Source: Patescibacteria group bacterium (lineage in GTDB: Bacteria > Patescibacteriota > Patescibacteriia > UBA1558 > UBA10009). From it: 64,000 bases of DNA. The notes below the pieces were generated by a model. It saw only the letters and a program-made list of their open reading frames with translations, was not told the DNA's origin and ran no database searches. Position 1 is the stretch's first letter. Each line of letters starts with the position of its first letter. Below, piece after piece: positions 1 through 54,431 of the stretch. The stretch is taken from NCBI GenBank assembly GCA_041662565.1, contig JBAZSE010000001.1:129084-193083 (forward strand), read 5' to 3'. The position numbers and the translations under genes were made by a program.

Positions 1-3000
1 TGCCGCCGAGTTAGCTAAAAGCGGGCCTGTTGCCGAAACCGTTAGTACCGGAGATATTGTAGCCGATTCTATTGGTATTTTTACCAATACCTTGGCTTCC
101 AAATTATTAAAACAATTATTTGATAAGGGCTTAACCAGCGGCAAACGTGCCCAAAGCACCCTAACCTTTAACTGGGTTAACACTCAAGTTGCCCGAACCC
201 AAGCCACTTCGGTTTTTGCCAATTTAGCCGAGGTTAGTTATTCTTCGGGCCAAGAACGGTTGTTGGAGCCGTTAAGCACTTGCCAAAATCCTTATAACCC
301 CGGCCCTACCGAGTGTGTTTTTAGCCCAAAGCTGGTTGGTGCTATTGAACAGGGTTTAACGGTTAAGGAGGCCTTAGCCAAGGGCCAACTTAGAGCAGCA
401 GGTTTGGTTGGCTACAAAAGCAACGGCAATTTAAGTTGGTTGGATGATTACCCCTACCGTTCGTTGTTAATTATGAGAATCCAGCGGATTTTGCCGGTTG
501 GCTGGGAGCAGGCCGCATTGTATAACCAAAAAGTTTTTAAAGAAGTAACGTTGGGTCAAATTGTAGATTGTTTTGAAGATCCTGCTGATCCGGAAAATCC
601 TAAAAAACCAACCGGTTGTAGGCAGGATATAAATGGCGATAGCTTTATAAATGAAGAGGATTTTAATCCCTATTTTCATTTAATTGATCCTAATTGGGTT
701 TTAAAGGCGCCGGAAAGTTATTGCGTTAAAAAGAGTTTTGGGCCAAACATTGTTAGCAGTGCCAGTGAATGTTTGGAAGATAACGTGGCTGAAACCAGAG
801 ATCCTAATAACAATAATGAGCTTGTTGAAGGACCGGCTTGCGAAACAACTTTGAGCAACCCCGATAAGCCGGTGCAAACCGTAGTCAGGGGTGATGAATA
901 CTGTGCTGACCGTAAAACTTGTTTGGAAGATGATGCTTCCGGCAACTGTACTTCCGGCGAATACGGCTACTGTGTTAAAGAAAAAGAGGTATGGCGTTTC
1001 CCCGGCGGAGAAAGTTGTCAGCCCTACTATAATACCTGCGAAACCTTAAGCAGAAATGCGGACAGTAAAAGTTTTTCTTACTTAAGAAATACGCTTAAAG
1101 AATGTTCTGCTGGCGCTGCCGGCTGTTTATGGTATTCCACTAATCAAACCAAGGCCTCGGGCTCTTGGCAATGGCAAGATGAGGCCAGGGTTTATTTAAA
1201 TGAAAAGGCCTTAAATTGCGGAGCCAATGAAGTTGGCTGTACCCAATTAACCGTTCTTAAGCCCGGCGTTAATACTATATTTAACGGCGATTTTGGTTCT
1301 AGCGAAAATAATTTAACCCCCGATGGCTGGCAAGGAACTAATGGTTGCGCTATTGTTTTGGATTCCGAAGGGAAAAATAATAATGGCTTAAAAATTACGG
1401 CTGCTGGCAATTCTTGTTCGGCTTCAACCATCGGTTTTATCCCGCTTAATTCCAGATTTGGTTATACTTTTGTAGTTTCTTTTAAATCCCCTGATCAAGC
1501 AACAGCGGGGGCCAGTTTGAATTTTTATGAACGCGCCGCAGACAATTCTTTAATCAATAACGCCACTCAAGCCATGAATTTGCCGGACGTAACCGGCCAA
1601 TGGCAAACATACAGTGGAGTTGTTAGTAATATTCCCAGCAACGCCAATTTTGTTAAAGTTAATTTAACAGCCACTGGCAATGGCGATTTGTTTTATGATG
1701 AGGCGCAATTGATCATTAGCCAATCGCCGATTGTTAAGGATCAAGAAATTAATTTTAGCGTTGACCCATCAAGATACCAAATTGATTACAGCCATGATGA
1801 TTCGTATGCCAGAACATTTTTAAAAACCCCGCCCGATTATTTGGCCTGCGAGGGCTATAACCAAGTAGAAAGGCGTTTTGCCACTCAAGAGGCCTGTGAA
1901 ACAAATAGAAAAGTTTGGCGCCAAGATATTAAATTATGCGTTAGCAGCGGCAGCACAAACTGTAATAATTACGCGGCAGTTTGCCAAGCTCAAGAAATCG
2001 GCTGCCAAGGTTATAAGCCCTTAAGTGGCGATCCGGAGGTTTCGGCCGTAGCCGGTGAGGGCGATGTTTGCCCGGCGGTCTGTGTTGGTTTTGAAAGTTT
2101 TTTGCAACAACCCAACTATTTTGATGTGGCCGAAAATGCCAATGTTCAAGCCAGCTACCAAAACTTTATTCCCAATACGGCTGCTGTTTGTTCGGCTAAC
2201 AATAACGGCTGTGAACAGTTTACCAATTTGGACGAAGTAGCCAAAGGCGGCGAGGGCATTGAATACTTTAAGCAGTTTAGACAATGTGTTTCTCCTAATA
2301 ACGCTAACATTAAAACCTATTATACTTGGGAGGGTTCCGATACCACGGGTTATCAGTTAAAGAAATGGGAATTTTTAGGTAGCAGTGTTGATGAGGGCCC
2401 TTGTACCAATATTGGCATGAACAGCGAAGAATGTACGGATACGCAGGATAATATGTTTAGATGCACCCAGGCCGATATTGATAATGGTATTTCGGATTGC
2501 CGGCATTTCTTTAATAAAGATAATGAACCATTCTTTGTTTTGGAAAGCAAGGCCATTACCGCTTCGGTTTCGTGCAGGCCATACCGCCGAACCTCAACCG
2601 GCCAGGTTTATAATGCCGATCCTCGGCCGGGTGATACTTGCCCCGCGGCCGCTAACAACTGCCGTGAGTACAGCGGTAATAGAGGCAACAATGTTAAAAC
2701 CATTTTAACCGATACTTTTGAAAAGAAAACTTTGGGCGATTGGGAAAATATTGTTGGTTCTACTTATGGTTTAATTCCTTCCAACGAAGCGATTTATCAA
2801 GGCGGACATTCTATGCTGGTGGCCACGCCAAACGCCGCTGTTTACTATCCATTAAATAATAAATTGGTTTCTGGACATGAATATTTATTAAGCTTTTGGG
2901 CTAAAAAAGCCAATGGTTCCAAGGTATCGCCAAAAAATAATAATCCGCAGGGCCAAACTGTTGATCTTTTAAATTTCTCTTTAACTAATGATAATTTAAC

Positions 3001-6000
3001 CAATGATTGGACATTATATACTGTTGGCCCGATTTTGTTTACCTCAAATGGCGCCAATCTTGCCAAATTAAAATTCTCCATTGAAGGATTAGGTAATGAT
3101 GAAGTTTATTATTTGGATAATGTTGTCTTAAAAGAATTTACCAACAGCTTTTACGTTATTAAGGATTCTTGGGAAACCGAGCAGGTTTGTAATGATCCAT
3201 ACCCGGGCGCTTACCTTGGGTGCCAGGCCTACACCGATAGGCAAGGCCAGAGCAATAACTACTTTAAGGGCTTTGCCAACTTATGTTCTCCGGCCGCCAT
3301 TGGCTGTGAGGCCTTTATAGATACTCAAAACAATAGCAATTACCAAGCCAGCCATTTATACAGAGTAAACGACCAAGATATTGTTACAGTGGCTAACGAT
3401 CGATTGGTTTACTTGGTTAATGATGTTACCAAGCAATGCAGCGCCGAAAAACAGGGCTGTTCGCTATTAGGTAAACCAACGTTGGATAGGCAAGAAAGTG
3501 AAGCAGGAACAGTTGTTGGTTATAATGATATTTACAAAATTAATAATCCCGATTCATATAGTGCGCATCTTTGCAGTGAGAGCGGATTATTCTGTACAAC
3601 CTTTAAAGGTGAAACCGGCGCTAGCAACCGGTACTATTATGATCCCGAGGCCTTAAGTGGCAATGGCGCCAATATGGTGCAAAGTTGTTACTACGCCAAT
3701 GGCCATTGGTATAAGAGCGGCAGTACCGGAGGCAATGCCGAGCCCTGCCCTGGTTCTTATAACTTCCATATGCTGGCTTCAAACCAAGAGGGCTATAGCA
3801 ACTGGGTCGGGGTTTGCCCGGCCAATCAATCAACTTGTACCGAATTTAGGGATCCCAGCGCATCAATCAACGAAGAAGTTAAACAGTGTGACGCGCAAAT
3901 TTCACCTACCATGTTGGGCACTTGTGTTGTTGGCCAAAATGGAGCGGAAGAACAAAACAATGATGACTATTGCAGTTTGAGCATTAATGGAGTGCGCCAT
4001 AAAGTTTGTAAATTAAATGGTGCTGATCGATGCGCCTACACGGCCAGCGATTGGACGTGTTTGAGCGAGCCAGCCCAGTATAATGATCAGGGTCAGCTTG
4101 AAGCTGGTACTGGCAATTGCCAGGTTAACAACCAAAAAGTTTGTTTTATTCCTTCGGGCAATACCACATCCTGTACCTATTCATTATTATGCAGTTCGGA
4201 TTCTTATTATTATCTGCATAATTCTTTGGATACCACGGCCACCTGCAATACAGTGGATAGGGAAGCGGGTTGTTTACTATTTAACGATACCTTAAACGGC
4301 AATTTAAGTTATAGCAATAAGGGCTCTAATGATGGCGCCGAAGCGAGCGGTTGCGATGCTTGGGAAAATTTTGGTTCAAACAGATATTGCGATGCCAATA
4401 AAATTATTAAAGTTAAAAAAGATAGGCAGTGCGGCGAGTGGCTGGAATGCAAAACCGGTTTTGAACAGCCCAAAGTGGGCAAGAGCGGAGAAAAAGAATT
4501 TGTTTGTTTGGATTTATACCGCTGTTCGCAAAAAGGAACCGGTGATAGGGATTGCGTTAAAATTATTTCCCAAGCAGGCGCTGATACATCTATATATACC
4601 TTACCGGCCGATATTGATAAAATCCGCAACTTATCCGGCTATAGCCATCCGGGCTTAAAATGGAACGATAACATTCAAACAGTTGGCTATGCTTCACCCG
4701 AGGCCATGACCCAAAAAGGCCAGCCCTTGGAAGTGGTTAATGGCGGTTTTGAAACCTACCTTGGCGGTGATCTTTCTAAGCCGGAAGGTTGGAAAACATC
4801 TCATAGGAATGAGGATGAAATTAATTCCAGCTATATTAGTAATGCCTGTTCGGCAAGTTTGGATCAAGATTCTGGCAATGTCCATTCGGGACGATATAGT
4901 TTGCGCTTAAGTTTAATCAGTTTACAGCATCCTGACGGCAATGACGGCAATGTTTATTGCGATTTTAGATCCGATGCCGGTGAAGATAAGTATTATCAGA
5001 TAATAGACAGTAGCAATTATAATTTGTCTTTTTGGGCAAAGAGTGAAAATAATGCCCAAGCAGCGGCTGTAACTTTGGCGTTTTACAATAATAGCAGGTA
5101 TCTTGGAGGTGATGATTTGCGTTTGGATATTATGCCTTCTACCAAATGGCAAAAGTATGTTATCAGTTACGGTAATCTTACTCGTCCGATTCCCAATAGC
5201 GCTAATCAGGCCAGGATCTTCTTTTACAATTATGCCGGCCCGAATTTTAGTGGTGTTTCTAACGGCTCAATTTGGTTTGATGATTTTGCCATAGAACCGG
5301 TGTTGGTTTTGGATGAACGCAATAACATTTCCGTTGCCAAAGATTGCCGCTTGTATCCAACCGAAGAAGCCCCCGCTTGTTCGTATCAAGGTTTATCCAG
5401 CAAATACGAGGGCTGGCAAGGTTATTGCTTAGAGCCGGATCCGGCCAATGCCGAACAATGTTTGCAATGGTATCCTGTTGATTCTTTAATGGGTGATCGC
5501 TTAAGCGTTTTTAGCACCCAAAGCACCATTAGTTACACCGATAGGTCGCCTTTATATTATTGCGCCCAAACAGCGGGGATGTATAATTTTGCTCCTGATT
5601 TACAGGGGAATTATTTAGGTACCGTGGGTTATAAATATCAGCCAATAGTAAATATACAACAAGGCGGTCCTCATGACCAATGTAATGATAATCATGCACT
5701 AGATGGCGGTATGGGGAGTAATTTGAGAATTTGTGTAGATAATGATGCTGATCCAGCTAATAGTAATTTTCCTGTATGGTCGAATTCATGTGGTAGTAAA
5801 GATTCCTCTTTTTGTAACGTAAATCAGCAAGTTTGTGAAGATCAAAATCATATTAATTATTGTAAAGTGAAGGAATCGCAAGGTTGTAAAGATGTTTGTC
5901 CCACGTTAACTCAGGAGGCATGTAGTGCGCATAGGGGATGTGTTTGGAATTATAGTTGTATACGAGTGGAAGACGCAAATCATCATGCATGTATTAATGC

Positions 6001-7657
6001 GCAAAATCAAAACACCTGCGATTATAATTGGCAATACGATGGTTGTGGTTGGGATCAGCCATGTGAATCAAAAACAACAAACGCGATTTGTAGTTCTTTG
6101 AGTCCTAGTCAATGTTTGGCTCCTTGTGTATTTACTAAAACTATAGATAATGGCAACAGCTCTTATTTGTATACTATTCATGATTGGTTAACTTTGGACG
6201 AAATAGGTGCCATTAAATTAGAAATAACTGGAAATTCGGGTAGTGATTTTGGCACAGGCGTTTATTTTAGCGATGTTACGGATCAATTAGATTCAGTGAC
6301 CGCATGGGGCGGTTTTAAGCCGGAAGACCTAAGTAAATATAAAAAAGTTTTTAATGCTTATGATAATTCAACGGGTCAAGGTGGCTATTCAATATTTTTC
6401 TCTTTTGATGAGGACCCTGGAACAAATAATTTGCGTTTACAAAGAGTAGATGTTACGGCGGGTGATTCAGACCAATTCGGAGGTTTTAGTGGCAAATTAT
6501 ATTTTTATTTAAAAGAACAATGCTCCTTAATCGCCCAAGTAGTTAAAACTGAAGGCAATGTGGTAAAAGAAAAAACCTGGCTCGGGCGTTTTAGCGCTTG
6601 GACGGATATGGCCAGCAACGTTTTGGGCTTAAATAAAAAAATCGATCAATCTCCTTACGGCAGTTTTTACGCGCCCAAAAACACCACGCCCGATTATTGG
6701 AGCGAGTTAGGGGCAAATGGTCGTAAAGATGCTCCGGTGTATATTTATAATGGTGGAAGCTTTGATTTTGGCCCTGGCACCCCGCTGGCTTGGTCGGTGC
6801 CCGAAAGATCGGCTTTTATAGCCGGAACGCCTGGTAGAATCTGTGCCTCTTCGGAAAATAAAAGCTTAATTGGCAAAGAATGTAGAACCTCCAGTGATTG
6901 CGGAACCAATGGCGTTTGTAGCGGTATTGGCAAGTATTGCTATAGTGCTCAAGGTATTACCAATGGCAAGGCCTGTAATGGTGATAATGATTGTTCCGTA
7001 ACACAAGGATTTAGATGTGAGAATCCGGAAAATTTGGTCGCTGCGCCGACGCAGAATATGAGCTCGGAAGCTGTAGCTATAAGCCGACTGCAACAATTAT
7101 TTGCCAAGGTTTATGGCGTGTGGCAATGGGATCAAAATGAAGGAATCTATAAAACGTTGGAGATGGATAATTTGGATATTAGCCCCAATAAGCCTGGCGG
7201 CTGGGCTGGTTCTGATTGGCCAAAAGTTGATTCAGCTATTATTACCGATAATATTCTTAATGCCCCGGGCGGCAAAGTAGAACTTAATTTTACCGCCAAT
7301 GGCAGTGTTGATCAGTTGCCTATTGATGGCATTTGGATAAACTGGAATGATGGCAATGTAGATTACTTTAAAGGGCCTTTGGGATATAAGCCCAGCGTTA
7401 GTTCGCCTTATAAGGCCTACCATGTTTATACTTGCCAAACCAATGATCGGGGCGATAGGTGTGTTGCTTGTCTTGGTGCAGGTACTTTAGATGACGGTAG
7501 TTGTTCTTACCCGGCACCAGTGATAACTTTCAAAGATCATTGGGGTTGGTGTTCTTATAATAGTTTTCGAGGCCAGGCCTATGTTGATCAAGGGGTCTGT
7601 AATTCGTTGTTCGGCAAGCAAGCGGATAAAAGCGTTACTATTCAACGTATTCAATAA
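1..7657 (+). CDS. Giant cysteine-rich secreted/surface protein, 5'-partial (more than 2521 aa). Carries several CBM4/9-like (galactose-binding-like) modules and recurring Cys-rich 'hydrophobic-G-C' repeats
   Basis: The frame is open from nt 2 with no stop, so the gene starts upstream of the window (first Met at 92). 'NGDFE/NGGFE ... GW' motifs recur around nt ~1270-1560, ~2700-3130 and ~4740-5300, which is typical of CBM_4_9. Cys content is very high and there is no long hydrophobic core. Confidence 0.7.
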   Translation, partial: AAELAKSGPVAETVSTGDIVADSIGIFTNTLASKLLKQLFDKGLTSGKRAQSTLTFNWVNTQVARTQATSVFANLAEVSYSSGQERLLEPLSTCQNPYNPGPTECVFSPKLVGAIEQGLTVKEALAKGQLRAAGLVGYKSNGNLSWLDDYPYRSLLIMRIQRILPVGWEQAALYNQKVFKEVTLGQIVDCFEDPADPENPKKPTGCRQDINGDSFINEEDFNPYFHLIDPNWVLKAPESYCVKKSFGPNIVSSASECLEDNVAETRDPNNNNELVEGPACETTLSNPDKPVQTVVRGDEYCADRKTCLEDDASGNCTSGEYGYCVKEKEVWRFPGGESCQPYYNTCETLSRNADSKSFSYLRNTLKECSAGAAGCLWYSTNQTKASGSWQWQDEARVYLNEKALNCGANEVGCTQLTVLKPGVNTIFNGDFGSSENNLTPDGWQGTNGCAIVLDSEGKNNNGLKITAAGNSCSASTIGFIPLNSRFGYTFVVSFKSPDQATAGASLNFYERAADNSLINNATQAMNLPDVTGQWQTYSGVVSNIPSNANFVKVNLTATGNGDLFYDEAQLIISQSPIVKDQEINFSVDPSRYQIDYSHDDSYARTFLKTPPDYLACEGYNQVERRFATQEACETNRKVWRQDIKLCVSSGSTNCNNYAAVCQAQEIGCQGYKPLSGDPEVSAVAGEGDVCPAVCVGFESFLQQPNYFDVAENANVQASYQNFIPNTAAVCSANNNGCEQFTNLDEVAKGGEGIEYFKQFRQCVSPNNANIKTYYTWEGSDTTGYQLKKWEFLGSSVDEGPCTNIGMNSEECTDTQDNMFRCTQADIDNGISDCRHFFNKDNEPFFVLESKAITASVSCRPYRRTSTGQVYNADPRPGDTCPAAANNCREYSGNRGNNVKTILTDTFEKKTLGDWENIVGSTYGLIPSNEAIYQGGHSMLVATPNAAVYYPLNNKLVSGHEYLLSFWAKKANGSKVSPKNNNPQGQTVDLLNFSLTNDNLTNDWTLYTVGPILFTSNGANLAKLKFSIEGLGNDEVYYLDNVVLKEFTNSFYVIKDSWETEQVCNDPYPGAYLGCQAYTDRQGQSNNYFKGFANLCSPAAIGCEAFIDTQNNSNYQASHLYRVNDQDIVTVANDRLVYLVNDVTKQCSAEKQGCSLLGKPTLDRQESEAGTVVGYNDIYKINNPDSYSAHLCSESGLFCTTFKGETGASNRYYYDPEALSGNGANMVQSCYYANGHWYKSGSTGGNAEPCPGSYNFHMLASNQEGYSNWVGVCPANQSTCTEFRDPSASINEEVKQCDAQISPTMLGTCVVGQNGAEEQNNDDYCSLSINGVRHKVCKLNGADRCAYTASDWTCLSEPAQYNDQGQLEAGTGNCQVNNQKVCFIPSGNTTSCTYSLLCSSDSYYYLHNSLDTTATCNTVDREAGCLLFNDTLNGNLSYSNKGSNDGAEASGCDAWENFGSNRYCDANKIIKVKKDRQCGEWLECKTGFEQPKVGKSGEKEFVCLDLYRCSQKGTGDRDCVKIISQAGADTSIYTLPADIDKIRNLSGYSHPGLKWNDNIQTVGYASPEAMTQKGQPLEVVNGGFETYLGGDLSKPEGWKTSHRNEDEINSSYISNACSASLDQDSGNVHSGRYSLRLSLISLQHPDGNDGNVYCDFRSDAGEDKYYQIIDSSNYNLSFWAKSENNAQAAAVTLAFYNNSRYLGGDDLRLDIMPSTKWQKYVISYGNLTRPIPNSANQARIFFYNYAGPNFSGVSNGSIWFDDFAIEPVLVLDERNNISVAKDCRLYPTEEAPACSYQGLSSKYEGWQGYCLEPDPANAEQCLQWYPVDSLMGDRLSVFSTQSTISYTDRSPLYYCAQTAGMYNFAPDLQGNYLGTVGYKYQPIVNIQQGGPHDQCNDNHALDGGMGSNLRICVDNDADPANSNFPVWSNSCGSKDSSFCNVNQQVCEDQNHINYCKVKESQGCKDVCPTLTQEACSAHRGCVWNYSCIRVEDANHHACINAQNQNTCDYNWQYDGCGWDQPCESKTTNAICSSLSPSQCLAPCVFTKTIDNGNSSYLYTIHDWLTLDEIGAIKLEITGNSGSDFGTGVYFSDVTDQLDSVTAWGGFKPEDLSKYKKVFNAYDNSTGQGGYSIFFSFDEDPGTNNLRLQRVDVTAGDSDQFGGFSGKLYFYLKEQCSLIAQVVKTEGNVVKEKTWLGRFSAWTDMASNVLGLNKKIDQSPYGSFYAPKNTTPDYWSELGANGRKDAPVYIYNGGSFDFGPGTPLAWSVPERSAFIAGTPGRICASSENKSLIGKECRTSSDCGTNGVCSGIGKYCYSAQGITNGKACNGDNDCSVTQGFRCENPENLVAAPTQNMSSEAVAISRLQQLFAKVYGVWQWDQNEGIYKTLEMDNLDISPNKPGGWAGSDWPKVDSAIITDNILNAPGGKVELNFTANGSVDQLPIDGIWINWNDGNVDYFKGPLGYKPSVSSPYKAYHVYTCQTNDRGDRCVACLGAGTLDDGSCSYPAPVITFKDHWGWCSYNSFRGQAYVDQGVCNSLFGKQADKSVTIQRIQ

Positions 7658-7659
7658 AA

Positions 7660-10600
7660 ATGCCTAATCGTTTTTACAACTTAATTAAAAAAAGTAAAAA
7701 ATGGCCATATATTACGGGCGTGGCGCTATTTTTGCTGATCATTTTGTTATTACCCAATTCAGCAGGCGCGGAAAGTAATGTTATCATGGGTACCTTAATT
7801 TCGTGGGTTGGTTCGGCCATGCTGTTGTTGATTAATTTTTTGGGCACTTGGTTATTGTTGCCATTAATCAATTTGGTTATTTGGATATTCAGTTATAACA
7901 GCTTTTTAACTTCCAATGCCGTGGTGGTTGGCTGGCCCTTGGTTAGGGATTTATCCAATATGTTTTTTGTGGTGATTTTACTATTTATCGCATTTGCCAC
8001 CATTTTAAACATTTCCAATTACAGCTACAAAAATACTTTTTTTAAACTGATCTTAATGGCCATTTTGGTTAATTTTTCCAAAACCATCATGGGCTTTTTT
8101 ATCGATTTTTCGCAAGTGATAATGCTCACATTTGTGAGTGCTTTTAGGGATGCGGCTGCTGTTAATTTGATCCACGCTTTTGGCATTAGGGATATTTTAA
8201 AACTAAACGTTAATGGCGGGGATTTTAGCAATACTCACGCTATTGGCGTGGTAATTTTGGCGGTTATTTTACTAGTGGTAGCCATTGGCTTAATGTTGGC
8301 TTTTGCCGTTATCCTGTTGTGGCGCATTTTAACTTTATGGGTTTTAATTATTTTATCGCCCTTGGCCTTTTTACTTTCTTCCATTCCGGCTGGGCAAAAA
8401 TACGCTTCCGAAATCTGGAGCAAGTTTACCGAACAGCTCGTAACTGGTATTGCTTTGGCATTTTTTACCTGGCTGTTTTTTACCGTTTTAGCCGCCGGAT
8501 ACAGCACGGATCAGCAAAAAATTGATAATAACAGCGTTTTAACCGGCAGTAATCCGGGTGCTGGCCTTACTTCTGACAAAACAGCTTCAATTGCCGGTAC
8601 TGCTCCGATTTCCAATGATGTTGATTGGGAACGCCTGTATACTTTTATCGTAGCTATTGCGTTGTTGTTTTTGGCTTTAGAATACGCCCAAAAAGCCGGT
8701 GGGCATGCGGGCAGTATGGCGGGGAAGATTTCTGGGCACATGTCAAAGATTGGAGCAAAGACGGCTGGCGGTTTTGGTTTGGTTGGGTTAGGAGCGAGAT
8801 CTTTGCCGAAAAAATTTGATCAAGGATTAGTAAGATTTCAAAAAAGCGGAGTTTTGAAAAGATTTGGAATGAAAGGGTTGGGCACCAAGCTTCAAGAAAG
8901 ACCTATTTCTTTAAGACCAACTGTTATTAAAGAAGCGATTGCTAGATATACCAAAGAAAGGGAAAGCCAATATTACACAGGTGTTGCCGAAGGCATGACC
9001 GATAATTTGCTCAAACAATTTGCCGGCAGAAAATCTGATTACGCCGGCATAGCTTATGATTCCAGAGTTAAAGAAAAGGCCCATGAAATAGGTTTGGGAG
9101 GTGAAACTCAGGAGCAGATGAGGGCTTATTTAAAAGAAGATCATTTAGAAAAATATGAAGGAACAGATCAGGACGGCAATAGGGTAACAAAGTATAAGGT
9201 TAAACAAGGTCATGAGGTTGAGGCAGAAGCCATCTTAGAAATTATGACCAAAAATCATGATCTTAATGAAATTTTTAAGGATCAAGATATAGGAGCTGCT
9301 TACAACAATGAATATTCAGCCATTAATGTTAGAGATTTGATTATGGATTTATTTCATGATCAAGGGCATGAGTTTGCCGGCAGGGTAGCAAAAGATGTTG
9401 GTATAGTTGGTTTTGAAAATAAAGATGCTCATTTGTATGGCATGGGTTCAAAAAATGTTAAAACTGGAGAATTTGAAGTTTTTCAGGAAACAACTAGAAA
9501 TGAAGAGGGTGATGAGAGTATTGTAAAAAAAGTTTTTGGCATTAATAAAAAAGAGAATCCGGAGGAATTTAGGAAGAAAATGGATTATGTAAAAGATTTG
9601 CGGCAGCGAGGTGCTCAAGGTGATAAATCGGCTGAAAAGGAATACAGAGGTTTGGTTAGGGATGAATGGAGTGTTTCTCAGGGTGCATTGGCTACCGCTT
9701 TTATGCTTAAAAAAGGTGGCCGCGCCGGATTGGGCAAAATTACTGCTCAGAATATCGTTGATGAAGGAGTTGTTCATGATGAACAGGGTAATGTTCAGGT
9801 TGGCGAAGACGGTGAAACCAGCCGTAGTTTCTTAACTTATAATTTGAATGAAACCGGCAGAGGAATAATTGAAAAAATGGCCGGTGTTATGACTAAAGAA
9901 TTTTCTCATATTATTGATGAAACCAAAATCTATGGTATAAACCCTGCTCTTGATACAATTTTAAAATTTGCCGAAGCCCAAACTTTAGCTTCTGAAAGAG
10001 CTAAGATTATGGATTTTGTGGCCAAAGTCGCTGGTATGGGAGAAAAGGTGCCTAGTGACATTAACGGTGTTAAAATTGATTCATCTCTAATTAAAAAACA
10101 AAGTAATGATTATCTTCAAGATGAGGGCTATAAAAAATTTAAGGAGCAGATTGTTAGGGTTTCCCAGGAATCAAGGTTAATTTCTCAGGGTGATGCGCGG
10201 CATGCAAGAATTGATGAACAAGACGGCAAATGGAAAAGAGATAGGTATTCAGTATTTGCAGAATATGAAAATGAAGATTTAACGCATAAGGCAAATGGTT
10301 CTAATCAGGAGCAATCGAGTTCCAATGCACCATCTACAAATCAGCCAACTATTCAGGCCGCCGTCTTTCAGCCACAATTAGCGAGATTAGATCAGATTAA
10401 TCAAAGATTAGCCACAATAGCTGATAAAATCGGTCAGCCGCCAATTGACGCAGAACGAGCAATTTTGCTTAATGAAAAGAACGGTTTAGAAAAACAAACT
10501 TCTATTTCCGTAACTTCAAATTTGATTAATAATATTATCAGCGGTAATCCTTCCACTTACGGGCCCAATTGGATGAAAGATCGGGCGACCAGGGATTTAT

Positions 10601-10782
10601 TTATCAGGACTTTAGACGAACATTTGCAGCCGATTAAAGATGAGGATGTAAGATTGCATGAAATTACCATGCGCCATCTCCAGGAGAGTTTTAGCACGCT
10701 TGATGACAGGTTTAAGAATTTGATTAATAATGAGGATGCTATGGTTAAATTTATCACTGAGCATAAAAGTGAAAAAAAATAA
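7660..10782 (+). CDS. VirB6/TrbL-like polytopic membrane protein. Signal peptide plus at least 6 TM helices, then a ~700-aa highly charged hydrophilic tail
   Basis: N-terminal signal 'LLLPNSAGA|E' followed by many hydrophobic helices over aa 40-350. The ATG is 2 nt after the upstream stop. It sits in a T4SS context. The VirB6 assignment rests on topology and context, not on a recognised motif. Confidence 0.45.
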   Translation: MPNRFYNLIKKSKKWPYITGVALFLLIILLLPNSAGAESNVIMGTLISWVGSAMLLLINFLGTWLLLPLINLVIWIFSYNSFLTSNAVVVGWPLVRDLSNMFFVVILLFIAFATILNISNYSYKNTFFKLILMAILVNFSKTIMGFFIDFSQVIMLTFVSAFRDAAAVNLIHAFGIRDILKLNVNGGDFSNTHAIGVVILAVILLVVAIGLMLAFAVILLWRILTLWVLIILSPLAFLLSSIPAGQKYASEIWSKFTEQLVTGIALAFFTWLFFTVLAAGYSTDQQKIDNNSVLTGSNPGAGLTSDKTASIAGTAPISNDVDWERLYTFIVAIALLFLALEYAQKAGGHAGSMAGKISGHMSKIGAKTAGGFGLVGLGARSLPKKFDQGLVRFQKSGVLKRFGMKGLGTKLQERPISLRPTVIKEAIARYTKERESQYYTGVAEGMTDNLLKQFAGRKSDYAGIAYDSRVKEKAHEIGLGGETQEQMRAYLKEDHLEKYEGTDQDGNRVTKYKVKQGHEVEAEAILEIMTKNHDLNEIFKDQDIGAAYNNEYSAINVRDLIMDLFHDQGHEFAGRVAKDVGIVGFENKDAHLYGMGSKNVKTGEFEVFQETTRNEEGDESIVKKVFGINKKENPEEFRKKMDYVKDLRQRGAQGDKSAEKEYRGLVRDEWSVSQGALATAFMLKKGGRAGLGKITAQNIVDEGVVHDEQGNVQVGEDGETSRSFLTYNLNETGRGIIEKMAGVMTKEFSHIIDETKIYGINPALDTILKFAEAQTLASERAKIMDFVAKVAGMGEKVPSDINGVKIDSSLIKKQSNDYLQDEGYKKFKEQIVRVSQESRLISQGDARHARIDEQDGKWKRDRYSVFAEYENEDLTHKANGSNQEQSSSNAPSTNQPTIQAAVFQPQLARLDQINQRLATIADKIGQPPIDAERAILLNEKNGLEKQTSISVTSNLINNIISGNPSTYGPNWMKDRATRDLFIRTLDEHLQPIKDEDVRLHEITMRHLQESFSTLDDRFKNLINNEDAMVKFITEHKSEKK

Positions 10783-10785
10783 ATT

Positions 10786-12015
10786 ATGGATTTTCAGGAA
10801 TTCAATAAAGCATACGAAAAGATACTATTAACCGCTGATTCGCAGAAGGCCATGCAGTTATTAACTTTGCTTAATAAAGGCGGATTTAATGTTTCGGCGG
10901 ATAAAGTAGTTATTTTAAAATGGATTGCTTTAGACCGTTTATCTGATCGGGAAATTTTAGAATTATTCCAAAATTATTTTAAAGAAGGTTTAGAGTTGGA
11001 ATTTTATGATTTAAAAGATCAGGTTAGAAATAAATTTCTTACTAGCGTGCCTGAATCCAAGCGTGATGATTATAAAAAAGAAATACTAAAAGCCATTAGC
11101 AATAATCAGCAAAAAATCAGCAGCCAAAATTATTTAACTGGCAATAATCAGTCTGTTGCAAATTCCATTGGCGTTTGGCTTAAAGATTATCTTGTTTTTG
11201 GTGGAGCGGAACCGTTGACCAATATTAAGGAATTAGAGTTTTATAAGTCAAACAAAAATTGGGGCTTATTAAATAATCAACAAAGGGAACAGTTGCGTTT
11301 GATGTTTAACTTAGTTGAATGGCTTAAGCATTCCAATTTTTCTTTACGAGGCGATTCTGAACCGGCATTTTTAAATTATGACGGAGAATATTACGGCATT
11401 ATTGACGGCAGGGTTTATAAGGCAAAAGATTTAATTGATGATTTGTCTTTAAGTTATTTTGCTCAAATTTCTGGAAACCAAAGTAATGCTTTACCAAAAA
11501 CATCGTTTTCCATAAATCCTCAAATTTTACGTTCTCGTTACCAAGAAATTTTAAAGCAATTATTGCCTGCTAACGGCGTTGCAAAAAAACCTGCCAGCCA
11601 TGAACCGGAGGTTTTATTAAACCAGCTTAATAATGATTTGGCCTTACGCGATGCCGGTGCTGTGGTTGCTGATCTGGAAAATTTAATCCAGTTAAAAGGT
11701 TTGTTAAAATTGTTAAAGAGCAAAAACTTTTCCAGTGATTTTATAATTTATTTAGAAGCCCATTTGGGCATGGGGCTTGAAGATCAAGCTACCCGCTTAT
11801 CTCCAGAATCTTTATCTTTATTTTTGCAGTTTTTACTGATTAATAAACTTCAACTTAGTTTGGAGCAGTCGGCAGTTATCGGATTATATTTGGCTAATGT
11901 TTTAGCCAAGCAAAATCAGCGGGAGTTTTTACCCATTGCCTACTGTGATTTATCTTCAAACACCTTTAAATGGCGGGAAGTGATAGGGGAGAATGGGAAG
12001 TTGAAGTTTAAGTAG
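10786..12015 (+). CDS. Hypothetical soluble protein (409 aa), translationally coupled to the VirB6-like gene
   Basis: Long ORF starting 4 nt after the upstream stop. No TM segment and no recognisable motif. Confidence 0.5.
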   Translation: MDFQEFNKAYEKILLTADSQKAMQLLTLLNKGGFNVSADKVVILKWIALDRLSDREILELFQNYFKEGLELEFYDLKDQVRNKFLTSVPESKRDDYKKEILKAISNNQQKISSQNYLTGNNQSVANSIGVWLKDYLVFGGAEPLTNIKELEFYKSNKNWGLLNNQQREQLRLMFNLVEWLKHSNFSLRGDSEPAFLNYDGEYYGIIDGRVYKAKDLIDDLSLSYFAQISGNQSNALPKTSFSINPQILRSRYQEILKQLLPANGVAKKPASHEPEVLLNQLNNDLALRDAGAVVADLENLIQLKGLLKLLKSKNFSSDFIIYLEAHLGMGLEDQATRLSPESLSLFLQFLLINKLQLSLEQSAVIGLYLANVLAKQNQREFLPIAYCDLSSNTFKWREVIGENGKLKFK

Positions 12016-18354: not shown

Positions 18355-18360
18355 GGATAC

Positions 18361-19806: not shown

Positions 19807-19807
19807 T

Positions 19808-27241: not shown

Positions 27242-27251
27242 ACAAATCGTT

Positions 27252-31382: not shown

Positions 31383-32632
31383 ATGAACGAACGTTTTAAA
31401 AAAATTATCATAGTTATCCTTTTTGCCGCCGCGGTTTTTACCATGGCTTATCTTATTTATTATTATTTTTTTAAGCCGGTCCAACCGGATGTTTTGCCTT
31501 TAAATAATAATCAAAACCAAAATTTCCCAGGGGGCCAGCTTCCGTTGATTAATTCAGGAGATGTGAATCGCATTGGCAATACCAATGTTAACGGGGCGCT
31601 TCCTAGCATCAGCCAATTGCCCGAAGGCGTAATTATTTCCGAAACAGCCACCGGCGGTTATACCCGGGTTAACTCGATTGGTAGTTCAAAACTTATTTCG
31701 CCCCAGCTTAACAGCAGTGGAGGTTTTAATTATTTTAATTCTGCTGAAGGCCGGTTTTATAAAATAGGCGCCGATGGCACAGCTACCCAGCTTACTGCCG
31801 AACGTTTTTACGCTGTGCAAAAAGTAACTTGGTCTCCGGGCGGGGCCAGCGCTGTTTTGGAATATCCCGATGGCTCCAACATTGTTTACGATTTTGCCAA
31901 AAATCAGCAATATAGTTTGCCTAAAGAATTGGAAAATTTTTCTTTTTCTTCCAGCGGAGGCGAACTGGCCGCCTCGGCCATTGGGCAGGGCGAAGAAAAC
32001 AATTGGATAGTAACCGCTAATCCGGATGGCTCCAATATTCAATTTGTGGAACGCTTGGGCGCTAACGCCGATAAGGTGGATATTAATTGGTCTCCCAACG
32101 GCCAAATGGTGGCTATGTACAAAAAAAATGTTGGCACAGACGCGCAAGAATTATTTTTATCGGCCGGAACGAAGAAAATTTTCAATCATTAACCGTTAAT
32201 GGCGGGGGATTTACGGGCAAATGGGCGCCTACAGGCAATAGATTGTTGTACAGCGTTTATCGCCATGATAATGATTTAAAGCCCATTTTACAATCGGTTG
32301 TTGCCGGGGGTGATAATACCGGTTCGAATAATATTGATCTAGGGTTAAACACTTGGCCCAATAAATGTGCTATTGCCAATGATGGTGTTACGGCTTACTG
32401 CGGGGTGCCGGATTATTTGCCAAAAGGCAGCGGCTTGTATCCTGTTTTAGCCAATGATTCCAGTGATATGTTTTATAAAGTTAATTTAGCCACAGGCGAA
32501 AAGTTTTTATTAGCCCAGCCAGTTGGCGAAGCCAGTAGTTATTCGGCTGATAAGGTATTTTTATCTGCCGATGAAAAAACTTTGTATTGGCAGGATGCCA
32601 AATCCGGGCGGATGTATAATATAAAGTTATAG
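31383..32632 (+). pseudogene. TolB-like / PD40 beta-propeller periplasmic protein with an N-terminal TM. It is split by an apparent frameshift near 32120-32175
   Basis: Frame 0 (31383-32192) ends 'NWSPNGQMVAMYKKNVG ... KKIFNH*'. Frame 2 continues 'NEENFQSLTVNGGGFTGKWAPTGNRLLYS' with the same 'WSPxG' repeats. An A8 homopolymer sits at 32121-32128. Confidence 0.55.
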
Positions 32633-32637
32633 TATAA

Positions 32638-33324
32638 TTGTTTATGTCCGATTTAAATCCAAAACAGCTTAATTTATTCATCAAACTGGCTTTGTTAGTT
32701 TTGGTAATTTTTACGATCCTTATTATTGTTCGTTCTTTTTACGGTTCCAAGGCCTTAAAAGATAGCGAAGAATATTTAGCTTCTTTAACTAATGTGGCTG
32801 TGCAAACAAGTGAACCATCCTTAACGGAGCCAATAACCCGGGCCACTGATCCAACTTTAGGCAATGCGGATGCTAAAAATAAAATAGTTGTTTACAGCGA
32901 TTTTCAGTGCCCTTATTGCGCTACCGCCATGCAAGTTTTAGCCCAGCTGTTAAAACAACATCCGATTGATTTATTGATTACTTGGAAGGATTTTCCCAAT
33001 CCCGATCATCCCCAAGCTCAAGGTGCAGCTGTAGTCGCCAGGTGCGCTGCTGCACAAAATAAGTTTTGGGATTTTCATGATTATCTTTATGCCAACCAGG
33101 ATCAACTCGGCCCTTCTTTGTATCCGCAAATCGTCGCTAGTTTAAAAATGGATCTTAATACCTTTAACCAATGCAATGACAATCAAATAGGCCTGCCTTT
33201 GGTTGAAGAAAACTTTACTGAAGCCATGGGCTTGCGTTTAGACGGCACGCCATATTTGTTTGTTAATAACCAAAAATATGTAGGAGCCATTAATGTGGCC
33301 GAATTGGAAAAAATGCTGAAGTGA
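32638..33324 (+). CDS. DsbA-like thiol:disulfide oxidoreductase (thioredoxin fold, CPYC active site) with an N-terminal TM anchor
   Basis: 'VYSDFQCPYCATA' and the downstream 'GTPYLFVNNQ' (cis-Pro region) follow an N-terminal TM helix. Confidence 0.75.
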   Translation: MFMSDLNPKQLNLFIKLALLVLVIFTILIIVRSFYGSKALKDSEEYLASLTNVAVQTSEPSLTEPITRATDPTLGNADAKNKIVVYSDFQCPYCATAMQVLAQLLKQHPIDLLITWKDFPNPDHPQAQGAAVVARCAAAQNKFWDFHDYLYANQDQLGPSLYPQIVASLKMDLNTFNQCNDNQIGLPLVEENFTEAMGLRLDGTPYLFVNNQKYVGAINVAELEKMLK

Positions 33325-33398: not shown

Positions 33399-35156
33399 AT
33401 GAAATCCACTAAAATCTTATTATTAACTTTTTACTTTCTTGGATTAGGATTCTTAGCTTTGCCTCAAAATGCTATAGCGCAAGACTTAACAGGTCAATGC
33501 TGTGTTTGCATAACTGCCACTGGGGATGTTGTTAATGATACATCCTGCACATTTTATTTAACAGCTGATCAATGTCATGCCAAGAGTACCACTCCTCCCG
33601 ATGTAGGCGAGCAAACAGGAGACATACAAAGGGAGTATACAGCAACAACTTGCAGTTTAGCTGCTTGCTCAAACCCATCATGTCCTGCTTTACCTCAAAA
33701 TCCGCAAGATAGTCAAAGGATTAAACAATCCAATCTAAAATTTATTCCTAATATTTCTATTCCGGGAGCTTCAAAATTTCAACAAGGCGTGGGCACTGAT
33801 GTTACTCAAAGCTTATTGCCCGAGTATATTCAATCTTTGTATAAATTTTTTGTGGGCATTGCGGGAATTTTGGCAGTAGTAATGATTGCCATTGGTGGGT
33901 TAATATGGTTGTTTTCCGGCGGTGATTCCGGAAAAATTACAAAGGCCAAAGAAATAATAGTTGGCGCCATTGTTGGTTTAATTTTGGTTTTAACTTCATA
34001 TTTAATTTTAAATACGATTAATCCCAAGCTGGTCAGTTTTGCACCTTTAGGAGTGTATAAATTTAGTGAATTGCATGTGGGTACTTTTTGCGAGCCAAAC
34101 GAAAGAGTTTTGGTAGATGGCAAGCCAACAGTAGGCAATACTTTAAGATGCGGTCAAAAAGCCACGGTTGAAGGTAGTAATGAATCGTGCTTAGGTTATG
34201 GCTGTCCTAATTATCAAAATGGCGAAGTGTGTTATTTTAATCCAGGTATGCAGGAGGCAAAATGCTTAAGCTGTAATACTACAGATGATGATTTAATGTC
34301 TTTGTATAATATATCTCAAAATGACGCTGGTTGTTCGGCCTTAACGCCGCCTAAAGAGTATCAACCAATTGATCATAAGCAGTTATGTGTTTTTACCGAG
34401 GCTAGTCATGTTGACCCTAATGATGACACTTGTGCCTTAATTGATGTTGATTGTGGTAATGTTAATTCTTGTAGCAGTTATGATGATGCAAAGATAGGGG
34501 ATTTATATTTTGGTCATGGTGTTGGAATAGATTGGGCTGAAAGAAGCCATTTAGAAAGAATTTGTACTAATGACATTAATAATAATCCCAGTAGAACCGG
34601 TATTTGTGAGGCGGAGAATCCTTCTACCGGACAATTTTGGCTGAACGCCAATAAGACCTGTTACATACAAAATGATAGCGATTGCCGAGAAAGAATTGTT
34701 AATCAAGGCGAGCAACAAGTTGTTTCTGGCTGGACATATGATCCTGGTATTCAAGATCAAATGGTTGATGCTTCTGATGATTTAAAACAACTATTAAATT
34801 GTTTAAGGCCTAAATTGGATGAATTTGAAAAACAGCTTAGTCAGCCAGGCAGACCTCTTAAGATCGGTCGGATTTCTTCCATTAGTGACGCTGATTACAT
34901 TGGTAATGTAGGAGCTTGTAAAGTTACACCTAAGCCGGCTAAGTGCGATCATAGTGGAGCTTCATGCCATTATGGAGGAGATCAAAATGACGGTAAATCA
35001 TATGGAGTGGATATTGGCGATGAAGCTAATGGTCAGTATATTGAGCAAGCAGCTTCCGAATGCCAACATGGCTATATGGCTTTAGAGGGTACTCCTGGCC
35101 AACCGGGAGCGCATTATCATATTTCTACAGCTAGTTGTCGCATCCAAGGAGAATAA
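33399..35156 (+). CDS. Cys-rich secreted protein with an internal TrbC/VirB2-like pilin hairpin (two TM helices) and a C-terminal LAS/M15-like metallopeptidase signature
   Basis: Signal peptide present. 'FVGIAGILAVVMIAIGGLIWLFSGGDSGKITKAKEIIVGAIVGLILVLTSY' parallels the pilin domains at 52650 and 54444. The C-terminus carries 'SCHYGGDQNDGKSYGVDI ... AHYHIS', an H-x-n-D ... HxH pattern. Confidence 0.5.
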   Translation: MKSTKILLLTFYFLGLGFLALPQNAIAQDLTGQCCVCITATGDVVNDTSCTFYLTADQCHAKSTTPPDVGEQTGDIQREYTATTCSLAACSNPSCPALPQNPQDSQRIKQSNLKFIPNISIPGASKFQQGVGTDVTQSLLPEYIQSLYKFFVGIAGILAVVMIAIGGLIWLFSGGDSGKITKAKEIIVGAIVGLILVLTSYLILNTINPKLVSFAPLGVYKFSELHVGTFCEPNERVLVDGKPTVGNTLRCGQKATVEGSNESCLGYGCPNYQNGEVCYFNPGMQEAKCLSCNTTDDDLMSLYNISQNDAGCSALTPPKEYQPIDHKQLCVFTEASHVDPNDDTCALIDVDCGNVNSCSSYDDAKIGDLYFGHGVGIDWAERSHLERICTNDINNNPSRTGICEAENPSTGQFWLNANKTCYIQNDSDCRERIVNQGEQQVVSGWTYDPGIQDQMVDASDDLKQLLNCLRPKLDEFEKQLSQPGRPLKIGRISSISDADYIGNVGACKVTPKPAKCDHSGASCHYGGDQNDGKSYGVDIGDEANGQYIEQAASECQHGYMALEGTPGQPGAHYHISTASCRIQGE

Positions 35157-52649: not shown

Positions 52650-54431
52650 ATGCTATTTAGAGCTTTTAATCGGAATATTAAAACAGCTACTTTACTAACA
52701 AGTATGGTTATTTTAGTAGCTGTTTTTGTTTTGCCAATACTGGCTTTAGCCCAAACTTCTTTAGGATTTGAACCCGTTGGATCAACAGGTTTGGGAACCC
52801 GTGATCTTAAAGATATCATCATCCTGATTATTAAAATCTTTTTGGGCTTTTTAGGCATTATTGCCGTTGGCTTAATTATCTGGGGCGGTTATACCTGGAT
52901 GACTTCCGGCGGAGAAGAAGACAAAATTTCCGAAGGCAAAAAGATCATTACCAACGCCGTTATTGGCTTGGTTATTATTTTATCTTCTTACGCGATTGTG
53001 CTATTTGTTGTGAGCAAATTTGATGTTGCCAATCAGCCGGGAGGAAATGTGCCTAACAGAGATCGGCGTGAATTTGATGTTAATATCGGAGCTTTTGGCG
53101 GCGGAATTTTAAGGAGCGTTTACCCGGAGCCGGGCGATCGGGATGTGCCCAGAAACGCCATGATCATGGTTAGCTTTAAAGAAAGAATGGATATCTCTTC
53201 CATTATTGAAAGCAATAATCAGCCGGTTGCTTGCGCCAACTTGCCCGAAAATATAACTTGCGGTTATTTAAAAGAATTTACTTTGCCCGATGAATCAGTT
53301 GTGCCGGCAGTTAAAATCATCAATCAAAATGATGATTCAAATTGGCTTTTGGCTAATCAAGTGGTGGTAACTACCGTTGACCGCCAAAATTTTGTTTTTA
53401 ATCCCGCTCCGCTTTTGGGTTCGGCGGATGGAGAGACCGCTTATTCGGTTAATCTTTCGGAGAGGATATTAAAAGATAATGGCCAGGCGGCTTTTTATTC
53501 CGGCGGCTATACTTGGTCGTTTGAAGTCAGTAATGTTTCGGATGTAACCGGGCCTCGAGTGGAAAGCGTATTGCCTAAGGCCGGTTCCACGGTAGCCAAA
53601 AATGCGGTTATTCAAATAAATTTTAATGAGGCCTTAAGCTTAATTTCCGCCACCGGGCATTCAACCGGTAATCCGGGTGAGGCATTTAATAACTTGTTAA
53701 TTAGCTATATCAATGATCAAGAAGCTCCGCAATATTTAAGTGGAGAATTTACCATCAGCAACAGGTTTAGAACAATAGAATTTTTACCCGATCAGGCCTG
53801 CACGGTTGATGGCCAAGAAGTTAGGGCAAATTCTTGTGGGGTTGCGCCAAAGTGTTTGCCAGCCAGCCAAATTATCACTATTTTAGCCAAAGCCGCCACG
53901 GTTAATGAAGCAGGCGAAACCGTAGATTTATTTTCCGGTTTAACCGATGCTTCCGGCAATTCATTGGATGGCAATGCCAATGGTGATTCTCAAGGCCAGC
54001 CAACTGATAATTTTACTTCAAGTTTTAATACTAATAACGAATTGGATTTAACTCCGCCGGTTATTGAAAACATTACTCCGGATCAGGGTTCGGCTAACTC
54101 CCCTAAAAACAGCAGGATTAATGCCGGTTTTAGTGAACAATTAAGAAGCAGTACCGTTAACAGCGATAATTTTAAGGTTTACAAATTTGCTTGCGACGGA
54201 CCTGCTTTCCCCGAGCAGTTAAGCTGTTATCCCGAAGGCGGTTTTAATGTTTATAAGGAAAATAGGGAAAATAAAACCAAAGCGATTTTAAGAACTTACT
54301 ATCCGTATCTGGATCCTTTAACCGTTTATAATCCCAGGTTAACAGCCGGCATCCAAGATTTGTATCAAAACTGTTTTAATCCGGCAACCGGCCCATGCGC
54401 AGAGGGGCAAGTGAGTCCAGGTTGCAGATAA
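52650..54431 (+). CDS. Surface protein with an N-terminal VirB2/TrbC-like pilin domain fused to three Big_5 (SbsA-type Ig-like) domains
   Basis: Signal peptide plus a two-helix hairpin 'IIAVGLIIWGGYTWMTSGGEEDKISEGKKIITNAVIGLVIILSSY'. Big_5-like 'SVYPEPGDRDVPRNAMIMVSFKERMD', 'VESVLPKAGSTVAKNAVIQINFNEAL' and 'IENITPDQGSANSPKNSRINAGFSEQL'. Confidence 0.7.
   Translation: MLFRAFNRNIKTATLLTSMVILVAVFVLPILALAQTSLGFEPVGSTGLGTRDLKDIIILIIKIFLGFLGIIAVGLIIWGGYTWMTSGGEEDKISEGKKIITNAVIGLVIILSSYAIVLFVVSKFDVANQPGGNVPNRDRREFDVNIGAFGGGILRSVYPEPGDRDVPRNAMIMVSFKERMDISSIIESNNQPVACANLPENITCGYLKEFTLPDESVVPAVKIINQNDDSNWLLANQVVVTTVDRQNFVFNPAPLLGSADGETAYSVNLSERILKDNGQAAFYSGGYTWSFEVSNVSDVTGPRVESVLPKAGSTVAKNAVIQINFNEALSLISATGHSTGNPGEAFNNLLISYINDQEAPQYLSGEFTISNRFRTIEFLPDQACTVDGQEVRANSCGVAPKCLPASQIITILAKAATVNEAGETVDLFSGLTDASGNSLDGNANGDSQGQPTDNFTSSFNTNNELDLTPPVIENITPDQGSANSPKNSRINAGFSEQLRSSTVNSDNFKVYKFACDGPAFPEQLSCYPEGGFNVYKENRENKTKAILRTYYPYLDPLTVYNPRLTAGIQDLYQNCFNPATGPCAEGQVSPGCR

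Follow-up and report, generated by a model that had tools for sequence, protein, structure and literature searches.

We analyzed a 64,000-nucleotide stretch of contig JBAZSE010000001.1 from a Patescibacteria group bacterium (GenBank assembly GCA_041662565.1, positions 129,084 to 193,083; here called the window), with attention to a gene at 33399..35156 that joins a type IV secretion system (T4SS) pilin hairpin to a C-terminal domain that appears remotely related to LAS-type zinc peptidases. The gene is a real open reading frame (ORF) on the forward strand and encodes 585 amino acids (aa) from an ATG start. The public call P0001 (565 aa; ENA ERZ27249449 k141_1565377) begins at the TTG of codon 21 (33459), dropping the signal peptide. 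We prefer the ATG at 33399 because the longer N terminus is conserved among homologues (MKS.KILLL..Y.LGLGF, kept in sequences that include P0002, P0005, P0006, and P0028). Short ORFs on the opposite strand within the gene (33830..34138 and 34551..34760) were without support, and a promoter and terminator scan gave no signal exceeding chance. The protein and its putative metal site are laid out as follows.

33399..33479, + strand: signal peptide (aa 1 to 27), hydrophobic at aa 3 to 22, with cleavage predicted after A-I-A (aa 25 to 27) from the AxA rule
33480..33812, + strand: Cys-rich extracytoplasmic N-terminal region (aa 28 to 138), 8 Cys
33813..34016, + strand: VirB2/TrbC-type pilin hairpin (aa 139 to 206), two transmembrane helices with the short loop SGGDSGKITKAKE; PF18895 match
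34017..34703, + strand: middle Cys-rich, strand-rich domain (aa 207 to 435), 16 Cys
34704..35153, + strand: C-terminal LAS-like (Hedgehog/DD-peptidase-like) domain (aa 436 to 585), from profile, model, and Foldseek comparisons
34950..35012, + strand: putative metal site, first half, H518 (34950-52), H524 (34968-70), and D538 (35010-12), within C..H...SCHYGG-x7-SYGVD
35085..35120, + strand: putative metal site, second half, E563 (35085-87), H572 (35112-14), and H574 (35118-20), from conservation and alignment with Sonic hedgehog (Shh)

A signal peptide, a Cys-rich N-terminal region, a VirB2/TrbC-type hairpin, and a C-terminal H...D...HxH pattern had been proposed for this ORF in an earlier reading of the sequence (here, the original prediction), and ORF analysis, Pfam search, hydropathy, and cysteine counts recovered all of them. 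The hairpin matches PF18895 (T4SS_pilin) across aa 139 to 206 (E = 1.8e-11; 44.4 bits against a gathering score of 26.6), while TrbC/VirB2 (PF04956) was sub-threshold and NCBIfam pilin-like matches were weak over the same stretch. Hydropathy resolved segments at aa 3 to 22, 143 to 176, and 180 to 209, that is, the signal peptide and two helices separated by a short polar loop. In its signal peptide and hairpin, its Pfam match, its VirB4/PrgI cluster, and the presence of several paralogues per genome, the protein resembles the VirB2/TrbC pilins of Patescibacteria (PF18895; PMC12102498). Those are typically small stand-alone subunits of about 100 to 140 aa, whereas the 585 aa protein carries large flanking domains, with some 110 additional residues before the hairpin and some 380 after it, including the enzyme-like domain. 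The hairpin topology is predicted to put both flanks, the N-terminal region as well as the 380 residues that follow the hairpin, outside the cytoplasm. An extracytoplasmic location is also suggested because the protein contains 30 cysteines (8 in aa 28 to 125, 16 in aa 215 to 435, and 6 in aa 436 to 585) and the gene lies next to a DsbA-like gene, a homologue of which also precedes the fusion gene in 16 related loci.

The extent of the C-terminal domain family became visible only with profile methods. Apart from the protein itself, a word-indexed homologue search with aa 215 to 585 returned a single relative (59% identity). An exhaustive profile search returned at least 248 clusters at 50% identity (E ≤ 1e-3), nearly all of them matching only positions ~232 to 356 of the query, which correspond to aa 446 to 570. 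A second search, with a 63-sequence alignment of the domain (A4), gave 321 clusters at 90% identity from Falkowbacteria, Komeilibacteria, Terrybacteria, Moranbacteria, Paceibacterota, and Parcubacteria. Family records are annotated "hypothetical protein" or "pilin," and the only Pfam domains recorded for them are PF18895 and PF04956. The domain was present in 244 of 248 sequences, always at the extreme C terminus, and 227 of these 244 also carried the hairpin, always N-terminal to the domain; the linker between the two has a median of 43 aa (range, 2 to 514), and whole proteins have a median length of 310 aa. With its additional N-terminal and middle domains, the window protein is unusually long for this family. 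Homologues of its N-terminal Cys-rich region (aa 28 to 138) were found in loci L001 and L029 only.

A scan of species-representative genomes with a 6-sequence alignment located 46 loci, essentially all in Patescibacteria. Nine loci came from assemblies with odd bin labels such as Gammaproteobacteria, Pacearchaeota, Altiarchaeota, and Bacillota (L007, L015, L023, L028, L035, L040, L043, L046, and L048); these metagenome-assembled genomes (MAGs) with a Patescibacteria-type gene are probably mis-binned or mislabelled. Viral contigs contained no relatives of the family. Pfam, NCBIfam, and PHROG scans of the protein and the 63 aligned members detected nothing beyond the pilin hairpin, and phmmer found no match among PDB sequences. 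We conclude that the last 150 residues are a real domain family that lacks a curated model and is confined to Patescibacteria.

We then considered what this domain may do. Across the 244 members, H524, Y525, S534, D538, H572, and H574 are invariant (100%), H518 is conserved at 99%, and E563 at 88%; Q454, S494, and D497 are conserved at 97 to 98%, and the domain has six conserved cysteines. An H...D...HxH pattern could by itself arise by chance in 585 residues; because it is conserved across 244 members, it is more than chance. H524 and D538 lie in the motif SCHYGGDQNDGKSYGVDI (aa 522 to 539; 34962..35015), and H572 and H574 in AHYHIS (aa 571 to 576; 35109..35126). A family hidden Markov model (HMM) searched against PDB sequences matched only the N-domains of Sonic and Desert hedgehog (E ~ 0.8, not significant alone), with the alignment falling exactly on "SLHYEGRAVD" and "HIHCSV" of the Hedgehog N-domains. 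Profile-profile comparison of A4 by hhalign agreed with this placement, both for Shh-N (P = 2.8e-4; the Shh-N sequence used was 100% identical to a database SHH) and for a 23-sequence Hedgehog-N alignment (probability = 60.8%, P = 8.2e-5). A local rerun against Hedgehog-N scored 34.3 (P = 6.6e-5), compared with a maximum of 21.7 for 200 column-shuffled templates and 17.5 for the reversed template.

The hhalign alignment paired H518 with Shh H135, H524 with H141, D538 with D148, E563 with E177, H572 with H181, and H574 with H183. Shh binds its zinc through H141, D148, and H183 and uses E177 as catalytic base (PMC6027127). A LAS-type zinc triad of His, Asp, and His with an H-x-H motif is therefore matched in the family by H524, D538, and H572-x-H574, and the catalytic residues (the equivalents of Shh E177 and H135) by E563 and H518; the H518-x5-H524 spacing equals that of Shh H135-x5-H141. 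In both the HMM-PDB and the hhalign comparison, the residues picked out as zinc ligands in the original prediction fall on the Hedgehog/DD-peptidase ligands.

An AlphaFold2 model of the C-terminal domain, built on A4, was of high confidence (predicted local distance difference test [pLDDT] = 95.4; predicted template modeling [TM] score = 0.90). It runs from a long helix through a strand (GRISS), a loop with H518 and H524, the D538 strand, a helix, and a strand ending at E563 to the H572/H574 strand. This order of helices and strands is known for M15 and Hedgehog N-domains. Foldseek matches in the BFVD library carried the labels M15B, L-alanoyl-D-glutamate peptidase, D-Ala-D-Ala carboxypeptidase, endolysin, and, in one case, "Sonic hedgehog."

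The profile comparisons thus indicate a remote similarity to Hedgehog-N. Among known systems, Hedgehog-N and the bacterial Hedgehog-like M15A DD-peptidases (Roelink 2018, PMC6027127) are the sole relatives detected at the sequence level, sharing the H-x5-H...D...E...H-x-H arrangement, all six Shh site residues, and the same helix/strand order; the Streptomyces albus zinc D-Ala-D-Ala carboxypeptidase (1lbu) was the top PDB match by Foldseek. The family differs from them in a 7-residue insertion (H-x13-D), a disulfide loop of ~20 residues that precedes H518, six conserved cysteines, scores below every Pfam threshold, and fusion to the pilin hairpin. A further insertion, of 8 to 22 residues between E563 and H572, occurs in the window protein and those sequences closest to it. 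The affinity is probably nearest to Hedgehog/M15A rather than to M23, the latter judged by a Pfam model scan alone.

A number of results weigh against a zinc peptidase. Profiles for Peptidase_M15, VanY, and M23 had been named in the original prediction as the means of checking it, and these checks were negative: neither the protein nor the 63 members matched these profiles or HH_signal, even at E ≤ 10. PHROG lysin families gave no match either. The hhalign probability for Hedgehog-N is just 41 to 64%; the alignment with E. coli MepK was weak (P = 0.014, at the Asp and the HxD/HxH strands), and E. coli MepA (M74) and DdpX (VanX-type M15D) gave no significant alignment. Canonical spacing is H-x(6)-D in M15 and Hedgehog and H-x(3)-D in M23 (PMC6027127), whereas 188 of 244 members have H-x13-D (range, x11 to x21), a spacing that hhalign modeled as the 7-residue insertion. 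Foldseek matches to the model were also non-significant: 1lbu had E = 0.52 and a TM score of 0.24, and the 11 of 22 top BFVD matches that are phage M15/endolysin-type peptidases had E values of 0.06 to 1.5 (TMq, 0.37 to 0.47).

On the same grounds (negative curated profiles, a non-significant Foldseek E with TM 0.24, hhalign probabilities under 65%, and non-canonical spacing), the domain could be read as a lineage-specific Cys/His-rich metal- or redox-binding domain with a different function, in which the HYGG...D...HxH pattern had merely converged on LAS motifs. We consider this unlikely. HMM-PDB search, profile-profile comparison, and Foldseek on two libraries are weak-to-moderate but independent lines that converge on one superfamily. 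Moreover, the six functional positions follow the expected order, the x5 spacing and the succession of secondary-structure elements agree, and the hhalign score lies far beyond the shuffle controls. The LAS assignment is, in our judgment, probably right. The proposal of a LAS-family peptidase accordingly survives as a Hedgehog/M15A affinity, supported by profile-profile and weak structural evidence, but not in the form of a curated-profile match or of the expected x3 to x6 spacing. Likewise, structure prediction of the C-terminal 150 residues returned the M15/Hedgehog-like order of elements with high confidence but no significant structural neighbor.

The middle domain (aa 207 to 435) has only ~7 homologues, all of them C-terminal to a pilin hairpin. 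Its AlphaFold2 model was of moderate confidence (pLDDT = 71.8) and had no significant Foldseek neighbor. Eight of its 33 weak Foldseek matches are Hint/intein folds (Hedgehog C-domain, BIL2, and inteins). We considered a Hint/intein-like autoprocessing module and provisionally rejected it, given TM scores of ~0.1, E > 1, an hhalign P of 0.63 against Hedgehog-C, and invariant residues limited to Cys, Gly, and Pro; these matches are probably noise.

A same-strand block ends with the fusion gene; ahead of it come a 420-aa ORF, PrgI, TrsD-like, and VirB4-like genes, two unassigned ORFs, a PD40-looking gene, and the DsbA-like gene. RadA lies 3′ of the fusion gene, followed by RecG on the opposite strand. 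The assigned members of the block and its first ORF are as follows.

25521-26783, + strand: 420-aa ORF without assignment, start of the block
26783-27241, + strand: PrgI/VirB3-like (PrgI, 4.2e-9)
27174-27935, + strand: TrsD-like (TrsD, 6.5e-7)
28050-29912, + strand: VirB4-like ATPase (TraG P-loop, 1.3e-29)
32638..33324, + strand: DsbA-like thiol-disulfide oxidoreductase, immediately 5′ of the fusion gene (Thioredoxin_4, 1.2e-23; DSBA, 4e-14)

The PrgI-, TrsD-, and VirB4-like genes lie 3.5 to 6.6 kb upstream of the fusion gene on the same strand. Patescibacteria T4SSs are MPF_FATA-like, with VirB2-like pilins common and VirB1 homologues rarely linked to VirB4 (PMC12102498), and the block is a T4SS of this described type. 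Domain scans found no peptidoglycan hydrolase domain in the other ORFs of the PrgI/TrsD/VirB4 block. Two other loci, L029 (a Ca. Komeilibacteria MAG) and L045, share this gene order, with the fusion gene and RadA in place, and we therefore assign the window to a Komeilibacteria-like member of the Patescibacteria. Across the family loci, a second pilin paralogue is common nearby (29 of 47 loci). A search for conserved neighbors that might serve as an immunity or partner gene returned only lineage-specific housekeeping synteny, DsbA, and extra pilins. Within the block, the TrsD-like ORF, when begun at its mechanically called TTG, overlaps the PrgI-like ORF by 68 nucleotides; the true start of the TrsD-like gene probably lies further downstream. 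The window also has one A fewer than the public contig ena:ERZ27249449:k141_1565377 at 32148-32151 (GAATT versus GAAATT); the public contig encodes a single 416-aa ORF there, with PD40/TolB-like repeats by eye, and the window two overlapping ORFs (31383..32192 and 32087..32632).

The explanation we favor is that the protein is a hairpin-anchored zinc peptidase that cuts the bacterium's own peptidoglycan for passage of the T4SS and its pilins. We favor it tentatively, as a possibility short of a probability. The protein would be exported via Sec, rich in disulfides, and held in the membrane by the VirB2-type two-helix hairpin, with its last 150 residues forming a divergent LAS/Hedgehog-DD-peptidase zinc peptidase domain. 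Zinc would be bound by H524, D538, and H574, with E563, H518, and H572 in catalysis. Whether tethered beside the T4SS apparatus or traveling with the pilins as a minor pilin-like subunit, the enzyme would cut peptide stems or cross-links, and the resulting opening in the wall would let the T4SS and pilins through, a task done elsewhere by VirB1, PrgK, or CwlT. What the analysis shows is the domain architecture, the existence of the family, its conserved residues, and a remote similarity to Hedgehog-N; we infer zinc binding, peptidase activity, substrate, and the link to T4SS assembly.

We propose the T4SS link because the gene sits at the end of a VirB4 cluster both here and in 7 of 46 related loci, no other hydrolase was found in the cluster, and a precedent exists in Ca. 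Southlakia epibionticum ML1. In that organism, SEML1_0007 has a C-terminal ECOD "Hedgehog/DD-peptidase" domain at aa 951 to 1105 and is essential for epibiotic growth (Wang et al. 2023, PMC10633639). Like the window protein, SEML1_0007 is a Patescibacteria protein encoded downstream of VirB4, beside VirB4/PrgI (PMC10633639, Table S2). It differs in its length of 1113 aa and in having no T4SS_pilin match listed. SEML1_0007 is also accompanied by the lysozyme/CHAP-like SEML1_0006, whereas the window cluster is without such a protein.

A comparison can also be drawn with the hydrolases of monoderm T4SSs, namely PrgK of pCF10 (LytM, SLT, and CHAP domains), CwlT, TcpG, and VirB1. Like them, the window protein would be a membrane-anchored, multidomain hydrolase outside the cytoplasm, encoded in an MPF_FATA-type cluster, and PrgK likewise has a LAS-type (LytM) domain (PMC11323569). 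The window protein differs in having a pilin hairpin as its anchor rather than a single transmembrane helix and in having no glycosidase or CHAP domain. Pfam and NCBIfam scans of the protein found none of the domains that define the VirB1 class (lytic transglycosylase/lysozyme-like or CHAP/NlpC), so a relation to VirB1 could only be one of functional analogy at most. The putative LAS site is intact in the window protein and degenerate in PrgK.

Three further points count against a wall-opening role in T4SS assembly. The LytM domain of PrgK has no catalytic activity (PMC11323569), and a LAS fold in a T4SS protein is thus no guarantee of activity. VirB4 occurs within 10 kb in only 7 of 46 related loci, with one additional locus that has only PrgI and TrsD-like genes at its edge. 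Most family loci have housekeeping genes as their neighbors (such as LepA, oxidoreductase subunits, ParB, and RelA), which argues against a strict VirB1 role. The original prediction had cast the protein as an unusual substitute for VirB1. That idea remains plausible but unproven, given that the fusion is widespread in Patescibacteria rather than an isolated case and is seldom near VirB4, and that a Hedgehog/DD-peptidase-fold protein beside VirB4 had already been tabulated in Ca. Southlakia (PMC10633639, supplement).

The distribution of these loci also bears on the target of the enzyme. The same peptidase, borne on the cell surface or a pilus, might cut the wall of a host for attachment, nutrient uptake, or passage of effectors or DNA, a role that would not be tied to machine assembly and so would fit loci away from VirB4. 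Patescibacteria are obligate epibionts for whose epibiotic growth the T4SS and pilins are essential (PMC10633639, PMC12102498), and the structural neighbors of the domain include phage lysins. Two other hairpin proteins in the window bear adhesin-type Ig and carbohydrate-binding domains:

52650..54431: pilin hairpin with Big_5, 593 aa
54444..63542: pilin hairpin with TIG, three Big_5, Big_2, and CBM_4_9 domains, 3032 aa

The VirB2-type hairpin appears to be a general module in these genomes for anchoring and presenting large surface proteins, and we keep a host-directed role in consideration for this reason. We nonetheless regard it as unlikely: no immunity-like gene is adjacent, the downstream genes being RadA and RecG and the neighbors elsewhere housekeeping genes, and a 380-residue appendage on every pilin subunit would be hard to fit into VirB2-type helical packing. 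A more specific version, less likely again, would make the protein a minor or tip subunit of the pilus whose active Hedgehog-like zinc peptidase drills through the host cell wall. If true, an enzymatically armed conjugation-type pilus would underlie the epibiotic lifestyle, and this family of the candidate phyla radiation (CPR) would be a prokaryotic, membrane-tethered cousin of the Hedgehog signaling domain.

The LAS fold might instead bind without cutting, using zinc to recognize peptidoglycan stems or some other ligand in the manner of an adhesin or receptor. Hedgehog-N is classically viewed in such a way, and the degenerate LytM domain of PrgK would be comparable. In favor of this reading, peptidase activity is debated for Hedgehog-N, the nearest relative by sequence (PMC6027127), the PrgK LytM domain is inactive and regulatory (PMC11323569), and binding domains occur in the sister pilin fusions of the window. 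Loss of ligands is, however, the norm in inactive LAS domains: D148, H183, and E177 are gone from Drosophila Hh (PMC6027127), and PrgK LytM is without metal (PMC11323569). In this family the six positions are 88 to 100% conserved over 244 diverged sequences, and we consider a purely binding role quite improbable.

VirB2-family pilins undergo C-terminal processing. A cis-acting maturation protease that trims or releases its own pilin part, by analogy with the TraF processing/cyclization of TrbC/VirB2, would suit such processing, the near-constant position of the domain behind the hairpin, the presence of exactly one LAS-bearing pilin per locus even beside several pilin paralogues, and the self-directed ("cannibalistic") proteolysis of Shh-N (PMC6027127), but it is very improbable, in that the linker is highly variable and showed no conserved cleavage motif, other pilins of the same arrays are without the domain (so that it is not a general requirement in cis), and LAS enzymes typically cleave D-amino-acid or Gly-Gly bonds.

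Several elements of this locus are already known, namely VirB2-like pilins in the CPR, LAS peptidases, wall hydrolases in T4SS clusters, and a Hedgehog/DD-peptidase-fold protein in a CPR T4SS cluster. What appears new in the searchable literature is the Patescibacteria-wide domain family without a curated model, its near-obligate fusion to the hairpin, and the H-x13-D variant of the site. T4SS and pilin arrays are essential to epibiotic growth in the few cultivated Patescibacteria, and recognizable VirB1-type hydrolases are rarely linked to them (PMC10633639, PMC12102498); the family, with its apparently intact zinc peptidase site borne on a pilin hairpin, is a testable candidate for how Patescibacteria cells breach a wall, whether their own or a host's. 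It would also extend the Hedgehog/DD-peptidase family into the CPR, with an unusual site variant.

Elsewhere in the window, the giant ORFs at 92..7657 (2521 aa, CBM_4_9), 7660..10782 (1040 aa), and 10786..12015 (409 aa) have almost no family matches. Five paralogues of ~485 aa, arranged in tandem at 15444-21268 and 21915-23417, all have a PEP-utilising mobile domain at the C terminus. Next come a histidine-phosphatase-like gene (23422-24432) and a gene encoding a PPDK_N ATP-binding domain on its own (24556-25524), after which the T4SS block begins.

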